Origin: Chloroflexota bacterium
Lineage (GTDB): Bacteria; Chloroflexota; Dehalococcoidia; DSTF01; RBG-16-68-14
Assembly (NCBI GenBank): GCA_022562155.1
Contig: JADFPV010000001.1
Span: forward strand, 16,508 to 80,507
Length of the DNA stretch: 64,000 nucleotides
Direction: 5' to 3'
Made by a program: the position numbers and the translations under genes. The notes under the pieces are model-generated. The model saw nothing but the letters and a program-made list of their open reading frames with translations, was not told where the DNA came from and did no database searches. Of the stretch, positions 410 through 14,624 are shown piece by piece. Within the stretch, counting starts at the first letter, position 1; every line of letters begins with the position of its first letter.

Positions 410-1549
410 TTGCTAGCTAGACTCTGGCTGCTGACCAAGCGCACCGTGCAGGAGTACGGCGACGACAACTGCTCCCACATGGCGGCTGCTATCTCCTACT
501 ACGTCCTGTTCTCTATCATCCCGCTCACGATCTTCACCGTCTCGATCTTCGGGCTAATCGTCCGTGACGAGGATACGCAGCAGAACATCGCCGAGGAGAT
601 CGTCGAGTTCCTCAACGTCGAAGAGGGCGTGCCATTGCTGGAGCCAAACGAAGAAGCGATCGAACGCCTGTACGGCGCCGAGGTTGTTGGAGAGGTCCAG
701 GCCGCGATCGACGACTTCTCCGTCCCGACGATCGAAGCACTCGCTGCGCAGCTTGAGGCCGATGAGGCGATCACGCTCACCGGCATTCAGCTGACGTCCG
801 ATGAGATAACTGTCCGCGCTGACAACATCGTCACGGATACGCTCGAGGGCGTCGCGAACGTGAGTGGCGCCTTGACCGTAGTGGGCCTAGTTGGCATGGC
901 GTGGGCGGCCTCGGCGATGTTTGGCGCGATCCGCAAGTCCCTCAACATCGCCTGGGATACCGACGTCCACCGTCCTGTTGTCCAGCAAAAGCTGGTCGAC
1001 CTCAGCCTCGTGCTGGGCCTCGGTATCCTGCTCGGCGCGTCGATCGTCGGGACAGGCGCGCTCCGCACCCTGCAGGCGCTCAGCGACGATAACCTCGGGC
1101 CGCTCTCGGAAGGGTCGGGCCTGCTCTGGTCGGTGCTGCCGCTCTTGCTGCCGGCGGTCTTCACGTTCCTTGTCTTCACCCTCCTCTACCAGTACGTGCC
1201 GAACGTGCCGACGCCGTTCCGCGACATCTGGCCCGGTGCCGTGCTCGCGACGGTGCTGTTCGAGCTGCTGAAGAACCTCTTTGCGCTCTACATCGCGAAC
1301 TTCAACAACTACGCGGGCGCGTACGGCGCGCTCGGCGGCTTGCTGCTCTTCCTGCTCTGGACGTATCTCACGTCGAACATCCTGTTGATTGGCGCCGAAC
1401 TCGCCGCCGAGTACCCGCGCGTCATGCGCGGCGACTACGACAACCTGCCCAGCGGCCCATCGCGGCCCCTGACCGAGAACGTGCGTCGTGTCGTCCGCAA
1501 CCTCTTCTTCGCCCCGTTCGATGACGATGAAGATGAGCCGAATGGCTAG
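410..1549 (+). CDS. YihY/BrkB family inner membrane protein
   Basis: AAAISYYVLFSIIPL N-terminal signature; multi-TM C-terminal half; long acidic loop. Confidence 0.65.
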   Translation: MLARLWLLTKRTVQEYGDDNCSHMAAAISYYVLFSIIPLTIFTVSIFGLIVRDEDTQQNIAEEIVEFLNVEEGVPLLEPNEEAIERLYGAEVVGEVQAAIDDFSVPTIEALAAQLEADEAITLTGIQLTSDEITVRADNIVTDTLEGVANVSGALTVVGLVGMAWAASAMFGAIRKSLNIAWDTDVHRPVVQQKLVDLSLVLGLGILLGASIVGTGALRTLQALSDDNLGPLSEGSGLLWSVLPLLLPAVFTFLVFTLLYQYVPNVPTPFRDIWPGAVLATVLFELLKNLFALYIANFNNYAGAYGALGGLLLFLLWTYLTSNILLIGAELAAEYPRVMRGDYDNLPSGPSRPLTENVRRVVRNLFFAPFDDDEDEPNG

Positions 1550-1587
1550 TCCCCGCGGCAGAGCGGTGTGCTACGATCCGTTCGCAA

Positions 1588-1630
1588 AAGGCAGATGCGG
1601 GCAGCAGCTGAACCACAGGTTCAGCCGGAG
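1588..1630. repeat. REP-like element (gcagatgc...cagctgaaccacaggttcagcc)
   Basis: Same ctgaacc-NN-aggttcag palindrome module plus cagatgc module. Confidence 0.65.
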
Positions 1631-1638
1631 GGCCTCAA

Positions 1639-2523
1639 ATGGTTTCGATAGCTAAAGGTGACATCCTCGTCGGCCAGGATATCGGCGCCCACGACTTCGA
1701 GATCACACCGGAACTCGTCGCCACATACATGGTCGGCACCGACGATCCGAACCCCTGGTACACCGGCCCCTCGCCGTTCGACGCCGGCCCCAGCGGGGCC
1801 GCTGTTGCCCCGGCGCTCGTTCTGCACTCAGAGGTCTACCGATTCGGGGGCTGGTACCTGAAGAACATCTTCGGGAACCTGCACGCGAAGCAGGAGTGGG
1901 ACCTCTTCGCCCCGATGATGGTCGGCGACACCGTCACCACGCATTCGACCGTCATCGACCGCTACATCAAGCGCGGGCGTGACTACGTTGTCAACGAGGT
2001 GCAGGTCTACGGCGAAGGAGGCAGGTTGCTCAGCCGCGCTCGCACGCACCAGAGCTTCCTGCTCGACGAATCGACCGAAGGATTCGCGGTCGACAAGAGC
2101 CGCGAAAAGAAGAAACGCACGGCAGAGACAGGCGGCGGCGACTTCGTAGAGGAGATCGCGCCGCTCGAGAAGCCGGTTTCTATCGACATGTGCAAGACGT
2201 TTTCGCCGGGTGTCACCTACCATAACGATGCCGATGCCGCGAAGAAGCTTGGCTTCCCGGACATCGTCGTCCAGGGCATGATGACCGTCTGCTTTCTGTC
2301 AGAGCTGATGACACTGCGCTTCGGCGAGGGCTGGTACAGTGGCGGGCGCATGTCGGTGAACCTCGTCAACGTCCTTTGGGGCGAGGACGGCGGCGTCACA
2401 TGCAAGGGCGTCATCCGCGAGTACACGTCTGAGTCCTCGGCCCGCCGCGCCCACTGCGAGATCTGGGCCGAGAAGGCCGACGGCACGAAGGTTATCGCGG
2501 GTACCGCCAGTGCAGTGGTGTAA
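1639..2523 (+). CDS. Double hotdog-fold MaoC-like (R)-specific enoyl-CoA hydratase/dehydratase
   Basis: N-terminal MaoC-N-like region (DFEITPELVATYMVGTDDPNPWY) and C-terminal MaoC-like motif (FPDIVVQGMMTVCFLSELM). Confidence 0.5.
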   Translation: MVSIAKGDILVGQDIGAHDFEITPELVATYMVGTDDPNPWYTGPSPFDAGPSGAAVAPALVLHSEVYRFGGWYLKNIFGNLHAKQEWDLFAPMMVGDTVTTHSTVIDRYIKRGRDYVVNEVQVYGEGGRLLSRARTHQSFLLDESTEGFAVDKSREKKKRTAETGGGDFVEEIAPLEKPVSIDMCKTFSPGVTYHNDADAAKKLGFPDIVVQGMMTVCFLSELMTLRFGEGWYSGGRMSVNLVNVLWGEDGGVTCKGVIREYTSESSARRAHCEIWAEKADGTKVIAGTASAVV

Positions 2524-2527
2524 CGAA

Positions 2528-2625
2528 AAAAGCAGCAGATGCGGCAGAAGCGAAGCTTCTGCGAAACAGAGCCGCAGGCTCTGCCAGCATCTGCCAAGCT
2601 GACCGGAGGTCATCGCTGACCACCC
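2528..2625. repeat. Large composite REP-like element (nested cagatgc[ gcagaagcGAAgcttctgc / cagagccGCAggctctg ]gcatctg + caagctgaccggaggtca)
   Basis: Nested perfect hairpins, read directly. Overlaps the 5' end of the downstream GGCT gene. Confidence 0.7.
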
Positions 2626-3062
2626 CGCCCGTCTGGGTCTTCTTCTACGGCTCGTTCATCAACCTCGACGTCCTCGCCAAGGTCGACTATGTGCCCGAGC
2701 GTTACGAAGTCGCCCGGCTCGATGGCTACGACATCCGCATCCGCCCGCTCGCCAACCTCGTGCCGTCAGATCGCGATAGCGTCTATGGCATCGTCGCGCT
2801 CGCTACTCACTCCGAATTGGAGCGGCTGTATGGGCAGGACTGGGTCGGATTGTACCTACCTCATCCCGTCGTCGTTAGCGTCACGGGTGGGACCCTTCGG
2901 CCAGCCTTGACCTACATCGCGCCGGACATGAAGCCCAAACCACCGGTCGATGACTACGTCGATCGCATCATCGGACCGGCACGCCGCCTCGGCTTTCCCG
3001 ACTGGTATGTCGAGCGGCTGGAGAAGGAGCGGGCAGCAGATGCGGAGCATCTGCCAAGCTGA
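2616..3062 (+). CDS. Gamma-glutamylcyclotransferase (AIG2/GGACT-like) family protein; start uncertain
   Basis: The conserved N-terminal motif VWVFFYGSFINLDVL (the YGS.. signature of GGCT fold) is encoded in-frame upstream of the tracked start at 2691. No canonical ATG/GTG lies in that stretch; it overlaps the REP element. Confidence 0.55.
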   Translation: MTTPPVWVFFYGSFINLDVLAKVDYVPERYEVARLDGYDIRIRPLANLVPSDRDSVYGIVALATHSELERLYGQDWVGLYLPHPVVVSVTGGTLRPALTYIAPDMKPKPPVDDYVDRIIGPARRLGFPDWYVERLEKERAADAEHLPS

Positions 3063-9461: not shown

Positions 9462-10298
9462 TCAGGCCTGCTTCAAACCCCGGGCCTTGATGAGGTCTTC
9501 AACCGTCTCGACCACAGTGGAAGCCTTGTAGACGACTCCCAGATCTATCATCTCTCTCGTCTTCACAAATGGTACCTGCGCCGTAGGGATTGACCTAAAA
9601 CCAATCTCTCCTTCATCTTCCCTATATGCGACTTGGCCGACCAGCCCGAGAAAGATGATCCTACTTCCCACCACGAGGCCCTTCATGGTCGAGTAACTGC
9701 CAACGTTGTGGATGAAGACTGGGCTTCCGCTTGAGCCCGGAAAGACCGATGCATCTATCAAAAAGACTGGTTCGCCGTTGTAATCGAGAGCCAGCGGCGT
9801 TGCGGTTGTCCCTCTTCGCATGATCGGCGTAAGGTTCTTGGTATCTAACAGACCGTTCGGATAGCCGACGAAAACCACCTCTTCCAGTGCATCTAGTTCC
9901 TCGATCTGCTCTTCTGTCGGAATCCAGTCGCTTGGGACGAACCTGAAGAAAATCTGCTTCTTCAGCTCCCTGATCTTCGTGATGAGGGGGCCCAAGGGCA
10001 TCACTGCTACGTCGACCTCGTCCCGGGGATGCCCGTGCCACTGTGAGGCGGCATCTTCAATTGTGAACCCGACGGCCTTCCCGATTACGGGTTCCTTGCC
10101 ATCGCTCGCTGTAAAGAAGAAACGAGCGGTCTCCGCGCGCTCCACTACGTGTTTGTTGGTCACAAGTACCGGTACGGCGGCGTCATCCTTGAGATAGTTG
10201 AATACGAACGTCGTAGCGGTACCAGCCCCAGTCGGGCCAACGGTCTCAAGCCGTACGGTACTGAAGAGAAGCTGTTGCGCTAGAGTTTCGACCTTCAT
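9462..10298 (-). CDS. Cytoplasmic trypsin-like (S1/Trypsin_2 fold) serine protease
   Basis: No signal peptide. His region VLVTNKHVV; catalytic Ser motif GSSGSPVF; Asp region. Lower GC than genome. Confidence 0.65.
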   Translation of the reverse strand: MKVETLAQQLLFSTVRLETVGPTGAGTATTFVFNYLKDDAAVPVLVTNKHVVERAETARFFFTASDGKEPVIGKAVGFTIEDAASQWHGHPRDEVDVAVMPLGPLITKIRELKKQIFFRFVPSDWIPTEEQIEELDALEEVVFVGYPNGLLDTKNLTPIMRRGTTATPLALDYNGEPVFLIDASVFPGSSGSPVFIHNVGSYSTMKGLVVGSRIIFLGLVGQVAYREDEGEIGFRSIPTAQVPFVKTREMIDLGVVYKASTVVETVEDLIKARGLKQA

Positions 10299-10313
10299 CT
10301 CTCGGTTGCGAGG

Positions 10314-10547
10314 CTACCTTGGCTCATAGCGAAGGGGCCGACCTTCAGCCCTAAACAGGTGCGGATACTTCCTTACTCGGGCACTGATCTGACTAGGAGG
10401 AGGGTAGTCGCCGTCGTGGCGAACGTAAAGGCCACGCCGCTCGATCTCGGCTGAGATCTCTCGCGCAGGTAGCTGGCGCCCTACCCTACGCAGGACGTCT
10501 AGTATCGCTTCGTGGAGCGTGACCTGCTCAGGCGTGCGATTCGGCAC
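10314..10547 (-). CDS. HARE-HTH (winged-helix) small DNA-binding protein
   Basis: TLHEAILDVLRRVGRQLPAREISAEIERRGLYV...ISARVRKYPHLFRAEGRPLRYE matches the HARE-HTH/Mrr_N-like pattern. Probable GTG start at 10547 with GGGAGAG SD (the tracked ORF extends to 10622). 15-nt gap to the protease start. Confidence 0.55.
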   Translation of the reverse strand: MPNRTPEQVTLHEAILDVLRRVGRQLPAREISAEIERRGLYVRHDGDYPPPSQISARVRKYPHLFRAEGRPLRYEPR

Positions 10548-10994
10548 TGGTACTCTCCCGGCTCTCGGTCCGCCACCTGACCCTAAGCGCTCTCGCTTCT
10601 GGCTTCTACTATCGCAACCCACCCGCTATCCTAGCACCTCGCCCACCGTATGCTCCGTCGGAGCGAACCGCTCCGGCTCGCTGGCGATCGTGACCACCGC
10701 AGCCGCCACCTTCTCCTGGCTGGCGGACGCGATCTGCAGGCCAGGACGCCACCATCCTCTTCAGGCTCTCGCTGCTAGCTGTTACGCTCGACAGGCCATC
10801 GTCCAAGTTACCCAACGGGTAGCCGGGTACCTTACCAACTAAATCGCACCGGCGTCGCGAAAAACAACGTGAATCTACCACCGGATTCAATCAACCAAAA
10901 CCGTCTAAAACGGCCTCGACTCGAATCTGACCGGTTTCCAAAACCGCGATTTTAATCAAACAATCAAAACGGCCAGATCAGTCGTAGGGGCGCT

Positions 10995-11045
10995 GCTCGC
11001 CGCGCCCTGCAGAAGCGAAGCTTCTGCCAAGCTGACCGCAGGTCA
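10995..11045. repeat. REP-like element (gcagaagcGAAgcttctgc + caagctgaccgcaggtcagcc)
   Basis: Same modules as 341, 2530 and 3040. Confidence 0.7.
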
Positions 11046-11666
11046 GCCGCCCGGCCGACGCAGTGCCTCGCCCGACTTGCTCGCTGCGAACGTCTCCGGG
11101 TCGAGCTGCAGCCCGAGGCCGTCGGCCATGCGCGTCAGGTAGTTGAACACCCCGACGATGTGCGCCACTTCCAGGCACTGCTCATCGTCAAACCCGAGGT
11201 CACGGAGCGGTTGCCAGTCCTCCTCCACCATCCGCGTCGGCGTCGCGCTCATCTTGTGCGCCACCTCGCATAGCGCCCGGTCTTTGGGAGACAGCTCAAG
11301 CTCCTGCCAGCGGTGCTCCTCAATCGCCTTCACCAGCTCATCGTCGCCGCCTTCAGTACGCAGAAACTCTGCGTGGGAGACCGTTCAGTAGTGGCAGTCC
11401 TGGCCCGCCGATGTCACAGCGGCCACCATCTCCCGCTCGCGACGGTTCAACGTGCCATCCTCGCTGAACATGATCTCGGAGAACAACTGTCCAAACTTGG
11501 CCCCGATGCGGCCGTGCGCCATGATCAGCCGCGCCATCGCCGGGAAGAAGCTGGTGAAGTCGTAAGGGTGGACCGGAGCCTCGCGGTCTTTGGGCGCGCC
11601 CGCCATCAGCTCTTCGCTTGTCGGTATCTTCACCCAGGCGTCAGTCGTCTTCTTCTCGGTCACCAT
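11043..11666 (-). CDS. AhpD-like / carboxymuconolactone decarboxylase family peroxidase-related protein with in-frame UGA (candidate selenoprotein)
   Basis: Tracked ORFs 11385..11666 and 11043..11333 are one frame separated only by TGA (11385-11387). Read through it gives ...SAGQDCHY[U]TVSHAEF..., matching the AhpD active site C-x-x-C-x-x-x-H with Sec at the second Cys. Confidence 0.6.
11350..11384 (-). promoter_or_regulatory. Candidate bacterial SECIS hairpin downstream of UGA
   Basis: mRNA UGA-ACGGUCUCCC-ACGCAG-AGUUU-CUGCGU: 6-7 bp perfect stem starting 10-11 nt after UGA, with G/U in the apical loop. Confidence 0.45.
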
Positions 11667-11721
11667 GGCGGCCTCCTCGAGCCTACTGATATCTGGGCCA
11701 GTATATCAGGGAGATAGCCGG

Positions 11722-12354: not shown

Positions 12355-13347
12355 CTAGCCGAACACGTCCTGATCGACGCCGTCCAGCGACGTCAGGTTG
12401 CCCCAGAGGTATGGCTGGTCGAGCGAATAGCCCTGGCAGGCGCGGCCCAGCTCGTATAGCGTCTCCCAGACAAGGCGGATCAACCGCAGCGGGAGAAGCG
12501 CCTGCCGCTCCTCGCTCAGGATCTCGCCGCCGCAGTCGACGTACAGCTCGACGAACTCGCGCGCGGCTGCTGGGTCGAACTCGTAGCCGAGTTCGCCGCG
12601 GCCAAACGAACACGCGGCATCGACGACTTCGATCGCGCGCCAATCGACCGCGCACTCGTCCCAGTCCACAATGCCGACGATGCGGCCATCGCGCTCGATC
12701 AGGTTCCCTTCCCAGTAATCGTTGTGGATCGGCATCGTTGGTAGGCCGCGCCTGGCGAGCTGATCCAACGCGTCTGGGAGCACGACCACCTCGCCGATCA
12801 GACGTCGATGCAGCCCGGCGGCATCAGTGCCGCCTAGCTCATCCAGGTCGTGCTCCTCCAAGTAGCGCTCGATATCGTGCCACGACCACCAGCGAGTTTG
12901 CTCCCAGTCCAGGTCGCCTCGAGCTGGAAAGCCGGGACGTGGTGCGGGCGTCTCGATAGACGCCGCCACGCTGTGTAGCCGCGCCAGCATCTCAGCCCCC
13001 GCCCGGCGATGCTGCGGGTTTTGGCGGTCCGGCTTCTCGCCTTCGACGAATGTCGTCAGCACCGCGACGCGCCCGCCCTCGGCGGCTTGTAGCTCGCCGC
13101 GGTCAGTTCGTATTGCGGCCGGCACCTCCGGCAAGCGTTCCGCGAATGGCGCTACCAGCTCTAACTCAGAGGCCACGTCTTCCGGCGAGACATCCGGCGT
13201 GTAGATTCGCAGCGCATACGGCCCGCCGTCCGCATCGATGCGATAGACGTCCTTTAGCTCACCGCCGCCCAGGCGCGCGAACTCGTTCGCGTCGTGAAGC
13301 TCGCCCCAGTGCCGAGAGAACCCTCGGGCTAGTTCGGAGGCCTTCAT
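12355..13347 (-). CDS. Aminoglycoside phosphotransferase (APH/ePK-like) family kinase
   Basis: Brenner motif IHNDYWEGN and DFD-equivalent IVDWDE. Start placed at MKASELARG (tracked ORF has an Arg-rich unlikely N-extension). Confidence 0.65.
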   Translation of the reverse strand: MKASELARGFSRHWGELHDANEFARLGGGELKDVYRIDADGGPYALRIYTPDVSPEDVASELELVAPFAERLPEVPAAIRTDRGELQAAEGGRVAVLTTFVEGEKPDRQNPQHRRAGAEMLARLHSVAASIETPAPRPGFPARGDLDWEQTRWWSWHDIERYLEEHDLDELGGTDAAGLHRRLIGEVVVLPDALDQLARRGLPTMPIHNDYWEGNLIERDGRIVGIVDWDECAVDWRAIEVVDAACSFGRGELGYEFDPAAAREFVELYVDCGGEILSEERQALLPLRLIRLVWETLYELGRACQGYSLDQPYLWGNLTSLDGVDQDVFG

Positions 13348-13421
13348 CAGGACTGCATAATAGCCAAAGGGCCGGAAATCGAAATCCGGCCCTTCTCGCA
13401 GCTTGGTAGGAGGCGTCTTGT

Positions 13422-14624
13422 CTAGATGATTTCCAGCATGCGGTCGAGCGCAACCTTCGCCCAGCGCTTGTCGTCGTCCGGCACCTTGATCTGGTTGACG
13501 ACCTCGCCGTCGGCGAGCGCTTCGATGACCCATGAGAGGTAGGCGGGATGCACGCGGTACATGGTGCTGCACGGGCAGACGACCGGGTCCAGGCAGAACA
13601 CCGTCTTGTCCGGGTTCTCCTTCGCCAGCCTGCTCACCAGGTTGATCTCGGTGCCTATGCCCCAGATGCTGCCCGGTGGCGATTCGCTCACGGAGCGCAC
13701 GATGAACTCAGTCGAGCCGTCGGAGTCGGCCGCCTCAACGACCTCCGCGCGACACTCTGGATGTACGACGACTTGTGCGCCGCGCTCACGGGCCTCGTTG
13801 ATCTGGTCGACAGTGAAGCGCTGATGAACTGAGCAGTGGCCCTGCCACAGCAGCACCCGGCTCCGTTCGAGGTCTTCCTGGGTGGTGCCGCCCAGCGATC
13901 CGAACGGCAGCCTGTAGTTCCAGAGTGGCATCTCGTCGAGCGAAACGCCCATCTTGATGCCGGTGTTTCGTCCCAGGTGCTGGTCTGGGAAGAAGAGGAC
14001 GCGCTTTTTGCGCTCGAATGCCCACTTCAGCACCTTCGGCGCGTTGCTGGACGTGCAGACGGCCCCACCGCGCTCGCCGACGAACGCCTTCAGCGATGCC
14101 GCCGAGTTCATGTAGGTGATCGGCATCGTGTCCTTGGCGACACCGGCCTCCTCTAGTTCGTCCCAGGCAGCGTAGACGTCCTCCGGGTCGGCCATGTCGG
14201 CCATAGAGCAGCCGGCGGCCATGTTCGGCAGGACCACCCTCTGGTGGGGGGCGCTCAGGATGTCTGCGGCCTCCGCCATGAAGTGGACGCCGCAGAAGAC
14301 GATGAACTCCGATTCCTCATGCTCGACCGCCCATTGGGCCAGCTTGAACGAGTCGCCCTTGAAGTCGGCGAACTGGATGATGTCCTCGCGCTGGTAGTGG
14401 TGGCCGAGCACGATTAGGCGCTCGCCCAGCTTCTGCCGGGCGATGCGGATGCGCTCGATGATCTCACGGGGCTCTAGTGCTAGGTACTGCTGAGGGATGT
14501 CCTGCTGCCAGAAACCAAACGACCGCTCCTCTGTCAGGGGAACGGTCTCAGTGCTGTCTGCCTCGCAAGCGATGCCTGGGAGGACGGTCAATTGGCCGGG
14601 CACTGTTTGCGTAATCATTACCAC
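13422..14624 (-). CDS. nadA: Quinolinate synthase NadA (long form)
   Basis: FIVFCGVHFMAE, three-fold repeat architecture, conserved Cys ligands. Confidence 0.85.
   Translation of the reverse strand: MVMITQTVPGQLTVLPGIACEADSTETVPLTEERSFGFWQQDIPQQYLALEPREIIERIRIARQKLGERLIVLGHHYQREDIIQFADFKGDSFKLAQWAVEHEESEFIVFCGVHFMAEAADILSAPHQRVVLPNMAAGCSMADMADPEDVYAAWDELEEAGVAKDTMPITYMNSAASLKAFVGERGGAVCTSSNAPKVLKWAFERKKRVLFFPDQHLGRNTGIKMGVSLDEMPLWNYRLPFGSLGGTTQEDLERSRVLLWQGHCSVHQRFTVDQINEARERGAQVVVHPECRAEVVEAADSDGSTEFIVRSVSESPPGSIWGIGTEINLVSRLAKENPDKTVFCLDPVVCPCSTMYRVHPAYLSWVIEALADGEVVNQIKVPDDDKRWAKVALDRMLEII

Follow-up and report, generated by a model that had tools for sequence, protein, structure and literature searches.

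The AhpD-like protein (COG2128) was reported in 2005 from the Sargasso Sea as a new selenoprotein family of 27 sequences, with a CxxU motif, in which U is selenocysteine (Sec), and a bacterial selenocysteine insertion sequence (SECIS) (PMC1088965). In the table of the 2008 Global Ocean Sampling (GOS) survey, 'AhpD-like 1' (COG2128) is the fourth most abundant selenoprotein family, with 299 Sec against 902 Cys forms (PMC2398784), while a 2026 review table gives the AhpD-like protein as TIGR01926 with CxxU and one Sec (PMC13188914). The family can also be browsed in BSepDB. Here we analysed a 64,000-nucleotide stretch of contig JADFPV010000001.1 from a Chloroflexota bacterium (the window), in which a gene on the minus strand (11043..11666) is interrupted by a single in-frame TGA. 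We conclude that this gene almost certainly encodes an AhpD-like selenoprotein in which the UGA at codon 94 (UGA94) is read as Sec. With the described family it shares the domain family, the CxxU motif and a small hairpin with an apical G after the UGA, and it shows all the sequence-level features of AhpD-like (TIGR01926/COG2128) selenoproteins. It is thus an already known kind of gene, an ordinary member of the family. It differs from the wider GOS family in one respect: there Cys forms outnumber Sec forms, whereas among the close relatives sampled here (56-84% identity) 87 of 88 are Sec forms.

When translated in one frame, the gene contains 207 sense codons and one internal stop, and the read-through product is ...AAVTSAGQDCHY*TVSHAEFLRTEGG..., with the motif QDC-H-Y-U-TVSH around the stop. 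In the list of open reading frames (ORFs) it appears as two entries, 11385..11666 (-) of 93 aa and 11043..11333 (-) of 96 aa. The second of these starts at a GTG 17 codons past the TGA, and the intervening 51 nt are open in the same frame. The third-position GC content (GC3) is 0.86 on both sides of the internal TGA, a value typical for the genes of this window (62.6% GC). A scan for promoters and terminators gave nothing relevant on the strand of the AhpD-like gene. A first-pass annotation of this DNA, made from the sequence, had described two ORFs in one frame that are split only by a TGA, and the coordinates and the translation match this description. It had also named AhpD-like as a known selenoprotein family with a CxxU motif, in agreement with the literature (PMC1088965, PMC2398784, PMC13188914), and had expected ORF callers to miss the gene. 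Public gene calls indeed split such genes into two hypothetical proteins (~90 and ~115 aa) or put Trp for the TGA.

For the family searches, Cys was put in place of the internal stop of the read-through protein. The strongest family match was to the NCBIfam model TIGR01926, 'peroxidase-related enzyme' (124.8 bits, cutoff 81.8), in which residues 11-191 cover model positions 2-178 of 178. In addition, the protein matched the AhpD core domain TIGR00778 (34.9 bits, cutoff 27.8) and the Pfam carboxymuconolactone decarboxylase family CMD (PF02627; 38.6 bits, cutoff 23), so that the AhpD/CMD membership proposed in the first-pass annotation was confirmed. The top solved homologue is Deinococcus radiodurans AhpD DR_1765 (PDB 6k40, E = 2e-23), which belongs to COG2128, followed by the 'uncharacterized peroxidase-related proteins' 2oyo, 2prr, 3c1l and 2pfx. 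The alignments of these solved homologues (E = 2e-23 to 8e-16) are near full-length and run without a break over residues 41-193, across the TGA position, with C-V-Y-C-A-V-S-H aligned to C-H-Y-U-T-V-S-H. This continuity indicates that the two ORFs are the halves of one domain. DR_1765 and the other solved homologues, all from cultivated organisms, share the active site C-x-Y-C-x-V-S-H, but have Cys where the window gene has Sec.

In the homologue alignment (A1), Glu79, Cys91, Tyr93 and His98 are invariant. Mycobacterium tuberculosis AhpD (MtbAhpD, Rv2429) uses a proton relay of Glu118/Cys130/Cys133/His137, whose counterparts in PA0269 are Glu36/Cys48/Tyr50/Cys51/His55 (PMC3141380). The MtbAhpD residues correspond to Glu79/Cys91/Sec94/His98 with identical spacing, and the distance from Glu79 to Cys91 is the same as that from Glu118 to Cys130 in MtbAhpD and from Glu36 to Cys48 in PA0269. 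In other respects MtbAhpD differs from the window protein: it is distant in sequence, has a different helix order and is a Cys enzyme, and its gene lies in one operon with ahpC, whereas the window gene has no adjoining peroxiredoxin gene.

Three other assignments were considered and rejected. The window protein is not a mycobacterial-type AhpD (AhpC reductase), as there is no adjacent ahpC and no type-specific NCBIfam family was among the matches. Nor is it PcaC (gamma-carboxymuconolactone decarboxylase), since it matched only the generic Pfam CMD family and no PcaC family was among the matches. Moreover, it carries the CxxC/U proton relay, while gamma-CMD members lack the CxxC proton relay (PMC3141380). 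NF041238 (AhpD_rel_CFYUT, an alkylhydroperoxidase-related (seleno)protein; 'hypothetical protein 1' of the Sargasso Sea) shares the AhpD-type domain and has a closely similar Sec motif, C-F-Y-U-T as compared to C-H-Y-U-T, but the window protein reached only 66.6 of the 175 bits required, covering model positions 213-343 of 357.

To follow the TGA among relatives, one genome per GTDB species was scanned, which gave 292 related stretches; the best 80 of these, together with loci from an exact protein look-up, make up the 88 loci compared here. The column of the internal TGA holds TGA in 87 of the 88 and TGC in one. The TGA forms come from metagenome-assembled genomes (MAGs) whose labels span at least ten phyla, namely Chloroflexota/Dehalococcoidia/Thermomicrobiales, Candidatus Binatia, Deltaproteobacteria/Myxococcales/Thermodesulfobacteriota, Acidobacteriota, Actinomycetota, Alpha- and Gammaproteobacteria, Gemmatimonadota, Nitrospinota, Candidatus Dormiibacter and Candidatus Elarobacter. 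So wide a distribution of the TGA is incompatible with a nonsense mutation or an error of assembly.

The protein search gave full-length Cys forms (P0001, P0005-P0008) and full-length Trp forms (P0002, P0004, P0012) at this column, as well as dozens of C-terminal fragments of ~115 aa that start 1-2 codons past it. Such a mix of Cys forms, Trp forms and C-terminal fragments is typical of a gene that callers cut at the TGA. Aligning the read-through protein to its homologues had been proposed in the first-pass annotation, and the aligned column is indeed one of Cys (in the five proteins named) or TGA (in the DNA loci). One Trp form, P0002 (locus L094), was examined at the DNA level and has TGA, the source gene caller having used another translation table. 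The idea that all Trp and Gly forms in the database are TGA read under an alternative code was only partly right, as P0003 (L095) has a genuine GGA (Gly) codon.

The second line of evidence is the hairpin downstream of UGA94. It has a stem of 6 bp, a minimum free energy (MFE) of -8.2 to -9.0 kcal/mol and a spacing of 16 nt between UGA and loop. In the SECIS of the E. coli fdhF type, a hairpin likewise lies in the coding region directly past the UGA, the G-U of its apical loop being the presumed contact of SelB. The window hairpin differs from it in sequence, its stem is shorter and paired throughout, and the bulged U of the fdhF element is missing. According to the bacterial SECIS model, the loop has 3-9 nt, the upper stem 4-16 bp, the distance from UGA to loop is 16-37 nt and the MFE is at most -7.5 kcal/mol; the loop has a G in its first two positions, usually as N1-G-[G|U]-N-N2 with N1 and N2 pairable (PMC13188914). 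The window hairpin agrees with all of these published rules, its loop being A-G-U-U-U with A and U pairable. By itself this is only mildly unusual, since ~3.5% of the TGA trinucleotides in the window precede a perfect hairpin (6 bp or more) within the loop and spacing rules. What lifts it far above chance are the comparative data, namely the TGA column in 87 of 88 loci and the conservation of synonymous sites in the hairpin codons only. Rfam showed no SECIS family, neither in the whole window at gathering thresholds nor in 11250..11450 at a permissive E-value.

In an alignment of 79 distinct TGA forms, 95.9% of the cells in the helix are paired. The changes within the helix comprise one compensatory exchange of C-G to U-A (L057 and L073) and eleven of A-U to G-U. 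RNAalifold, run on the alignment of these 79 sequences, recovered 5 of 8 pairs with a weak covariation term. As this weakness results from an element that barely varies, the synonymous entropy and the contrast with Cys forms were used as the test.

The hairpin sits in the codons of the conserved peptide H-A-E-F-L-R, which makes codon choice the key test of selection on the RNA. In TGA forms, the Ala at position +5 is encoded by GCA in 66 and by GCG in 11 of 77 sequences, whereas GCA makes up only ~5-10% in other Ala columns. The Arg at +9 is CGT in 82 of 83, compared with 8 of 78 in the comparison column (Arg at -16), and the Leu at +8 and the Phe at +7 are mostly CTG (78/83) and TTT (73/80), respectively. 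Outside the hairpin, Ala and Arg columns favour GCG/GCC and CGG/CGC. Overall, the synonymous entropy was 0.09-0.59 bits at the six hairpin codons versus 0.7-1.9 bits at flanking conserved codons. The five Cys-form genes, on the other hand, encode a near-identical peptide with GCC (GTC in one) and TTC (CTC in one); Leu and Arg codons vary among them, and CGT is kept in two. At the equivalent positions the Cys forms fold at 0 to -2.9 kcal/mol, compared to -10.8 kcal/mol for the consensus of the TGA forms, and the hairpin was missing in all five that were compared. The hairpin codons are thus constrained in TGA forms but not in Cys forms, which shows that the RNA structure is selected only where the UGA is recoded. 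As an example of how selection on the RNA acts on the synonymous sites of a SECIS, the comparative set is unusually clean. The first-pass annotation had pointed to a perfect hairpin 10 nt past the UGA, at the place of a bacterial SECIS, and both the published rules and this synonymous conservation in TGA forms bear it out.

Three TGA forms (L040, 10232..10291; L050, 10253..10312; L068, 7282..7341), from MAGs labelled alphaproteobacterial, 'Enterobacteriaceae' and gammaproteobacterial, have the peptide SHTEFLR and no canonical hairpin. They carry another hairpin, UUCCUC-CGUGUY-GAGGA(A), a few nt further downstream, which folds at ~-6 kcal/mol and may be an alternative SECIS of a sub-clade.

Several observations weigh against the reading of UGA94 as Sec. 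The spacing of 16 nt between UGA and loop is the lower limit of the SECIS model, and the 81-nt region around the hairpin folds no better than shuffled sequences (z = +0.82). A seventh stem pair, C-G in most relatives, is C/A here, and covariation in the helix is thin, as the element hardly varies. Furthermore, ARAGORN found no tRNA in the 64-kb window, Rfam at gathering thresholds found no tRNA-Sec in it, and no selA, selB or selD was apparent by eye among its 58 predicted genes, of which about ten were run through Pfam. A search of JGI metagenome contigs for exact matches to the first 40 nt of the window, aimed at extending the source contig, gave no hit. Both a strict and a relaxed (redox-motif) scan of the window for TGA-split frames revealed no second selenoprotein gene; the other matches were off-frame and non-coding-looking. 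Finally, no gene of a peroxiredoxin partner is adjacent.

For the putative Sec trait of the source genome, relatives give indirect support. By sequence and local synteny, the nearest relatives of the window are Chloroflexota/Dehalococcoidia MAGs (L009, with 84% identity, L010, L011 and L013). In six Dehalococcoidia genomes (L056, L059 (= L004), L067, L071, L074 and L084), a tRNA-Sec (UCA anticodon) is encoded 7-9 kb upstream of the TVSH-type orthologue in conserved synteny, with the tRNA at ~700..2800 and the orthologue at 10001 of these loci. At the corresponding place the window lacks a tRNA. The bacteria listed as richest in selenoproteins include Dehalococcoidia, among them UBA1141, from which L072 comes.

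We then weighed other explanations for the internal TGA. The gene could be dead, either because the Sec machinery was lost or because the TGA is a nonsense mutation, in which case only a 93-residue fragment would be made. This would agree with the absence of visible Sec machinery from the window and with the decay of single relatives (TAA in L070, GGA for TGA in L095). However, the TGA is ancestral, as its presence in 87 of 88 loci indicates, the hairpin is perfect, and the downstream half is in an intact frame with a GC3 of 0.86 and 90% identity to L009. The same intact gene was also found on three independent metagenome contigs, and we consider a pseudogene very improbable. A further suggestion, that the hairpin is a by-product of the conserved peptide SHAEFLR and that there are two separate small genes, draws on the two ORFs given by gene callers and on the position of the hairpin, wholly within strongly conserved codons. 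Under this suggestion the catalytic motif would be split, although the solved single-domain AhpD-like fold covers both halves, and the first start after the TGA comes only 17 codons on, beyond the conserved residues. Moreover, Cys forms make H-A-E-F-L-R with other codons and no hairpin. Two separate genes are therefore next to inconceivable.

Decoding of the UGA as one of the standard amino acids (Trp, Gly or Cys), by an alternative code or by near-cognate read-through, also appears extremely improbable. Database calls with Trp at this position (P0002, P0004 and P0012) speak for it, but the Trp of P0002 is a TGA in the DNA that was translated under another table, and homologues with a sense codon have Cys, not Trp, at this position. 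The 58 predicted genes of the window use TGA 24 times, TAG 23 times and TAA 11 times as stop. As TGA is the commonest ordinary stop and also ends the AhpD-like gene, the alternative codes 4 and 25 are excluded. In addition, the internal TGA comes with a SECIS-type hairpin under synonymous constraint, and relatives have a tRNA-Sec. Taken together, these data make selenocysteine at UGA94 almost certain.

On this reading, SelB-GTP carrying Sec-tRNA(Sec) would bind the hairpin loop, whose G-U is found 17-18 nt downstream of the UGA, and deliver Sec at UGA94. The ribosome would then melt the hairpin, read it as H-A-E-F-L-R, the active-site helix, and stop at the hairpin-less UGA208. In the predicted product, Cys91 and Sec94 would form a redox pair, with Glu79 and His98 as proton relay. 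We infer these decoding steps from the established bacterial Sec pathway, and the residue roles from AhpD enzymology. In MtbAhpD, the oxidised cysteine of AhpC is attacked by the exposed Cys133, Cys130 being partly buried (PMC6626918). By analogy, Sec94 would be the exposed attacking residue and might form a mixed selenenylsulfide with an oxidised partner, presumably a peroxiredoxin such as AhpC, AhpE or BCP; alternatively, Sec94 could react directly with a hydroperoxide. Cys91 would then resolve the Sec94 intermediate. AhpD of Burkholderia thailandensis depends more on its first Cys (PMC6626918), so the assignment of the attacking residue is not universal, but Sec94 as attacking and Cys91 as resolving residue appears most likely. 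The first-pass annotation had placed the UGA at the second Cys of C-x-x-C-x-x-x-H, which the alignment supports, and had called this Cys the resolving one, a label that is probably reversed judging from MtbAhpD Cys133 (PMC6626918).

As the gene is misannotated in all places where it is found, the correct gene call repairs the annotation and marks the source organism as a likely selenium user. A further-reaching possibility, which we consider rather doubtful, is that the clade is almost obligately Sec-dependent and that its near-invariant 19-nt SECIS (CACGCAGAGUUUCUGCGUG), doubling as the codons of H-A-E-F-L-R, belongs to a universal or horizontally transferred cassette. If SelB proteins of so many phyla do accept this one minimal element, we would be dealing with a compact bacterial SECIS that is naturally 'universal', and with a gene that travelled horizontally as a self-contained Sec cassette. 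The tandem fusion with two Sec in L093 (see below) would then be a further elaboration, and the scarcity of Cys forms would point to chemistry beyond that of Cys.

Table 1. Positions of the AhpD-like gene and its sequence elements in the window.
Feature	Coordinates	Strand	Basis or remark
AhpD-like gene, complete, almost certainly encoding a selenoprotein	11043..11666	-	single frame, one internal TGA
Start codon ATG	11664..11666	-	gene 11043..11666
Shine-Dalgarno-like GAGGAGG, 5 nt 5' of the ATG	11672..11678	-	read from sequence
In-frame UGA, codon 94, second position of the pair in C91-H-Y-U94	11385..11387	-	aligned homologues
Cys91 codon, first of the CxxU redox pair	11394..11396	-	invariant in alignment A1 and in all 88 loci
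His98 codon, H of C-x-x-U-x-x-x-H, equivalent to MtbAhpD His137	11373..11375	-	invariant in A1; PMC3141380
Glu79 codon, 12 residues N-terminal to Cys91	11430..11432	-	invariant in A1
SECIS-type hairpin ACGCAG-AGUUU-CUGCGU	11358..11374	-	starts 10 nt past the TGA
Hairpin stem	11369..11374 with 11358..11363	-	inside codons 98-103 (H-A-E-F-L-R)
Hairpin loop AGUUU	11364..11368	-	inside codons 98-103 (H-A-E-F-L-R)
Terminal UGA (UGA208), true stop, no hairpin behind	11043..11045	-	homologues end at the same place

The neighbours of the AhpD-like gene encode NadA, an APH-family kinase, an unknown 193-aa protein, and HARE-HTH and Trypsin_2 proteins. Among the ten neighbours, Pfam revealed no peroxiredoxin, thioredoxin or sel genes. 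The synteny with the genes for NadA, the APH kinase and the 193-aa protein is limited to the closest Chloroflexota relatives and thus gives no functional clue. Directly downstream of the AhpD-like gene lies an AT-rich intergenic stretch (~10880..11040), and beyond it the genes for the HARE-HTH protein (10314..10622, minus strand) and the Trypsin_2 peptidase (9462..10298, minus strand). This pair is found in the near-identical contig L001 only, and not in the syntenic L009-L013, so that the region 9462..11040 might represent an island inserted here. In its longest ORF (12355..13572, minus strand), the gene of the APH-family kinase overlaps the end of nadA (13422..14624, minus strand) by ~150 nt. 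As the Pfam match of the kinase begins at residue 99, its real start is probably further downstream.

We also observed some variants of the gene among its relatives. P0010, a 198-aa full-length homologue, has Phe at the Sec/Cys column (QNCHYFTYHH) in a match at the protein level. In L070 (10247..10306), a TAA is found two codons past the Sec TGA (CAA to TAA) while the hairpin is intact, probably reflecting recent pseudogene formation or an error of assembly. In L095 (261..893), the GGA that replaces the TGA is a one-base change, and the hairpin is mostly kept (CGC for CGU). The next gene downstream (929..1186) has a weak match to GTP_EFTU_D2 and could be a fragment of an elongation-factor-like protein, possibly SelB. 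L093 (2719..4008, plus strand; JGI 3300013761, Ga0180335_1000282) contains a frame of 428 codons with two tandem AhpD-like domains and in-frame TGAs at codons 94 and 314. Each of these is followed by the CACGCAGAGUUUCUGCGUG hairpin, which is absent after the terminal TGA, and L093 looks like a fused double-Sec AhpD-like protein. Fragments of this architecture, consisting of a C-half plus an N-half, were seen in 8 of 61 protein clusters (P0009, P0021, P0028, P0030, P0031, P0032, P0037 and P0039).

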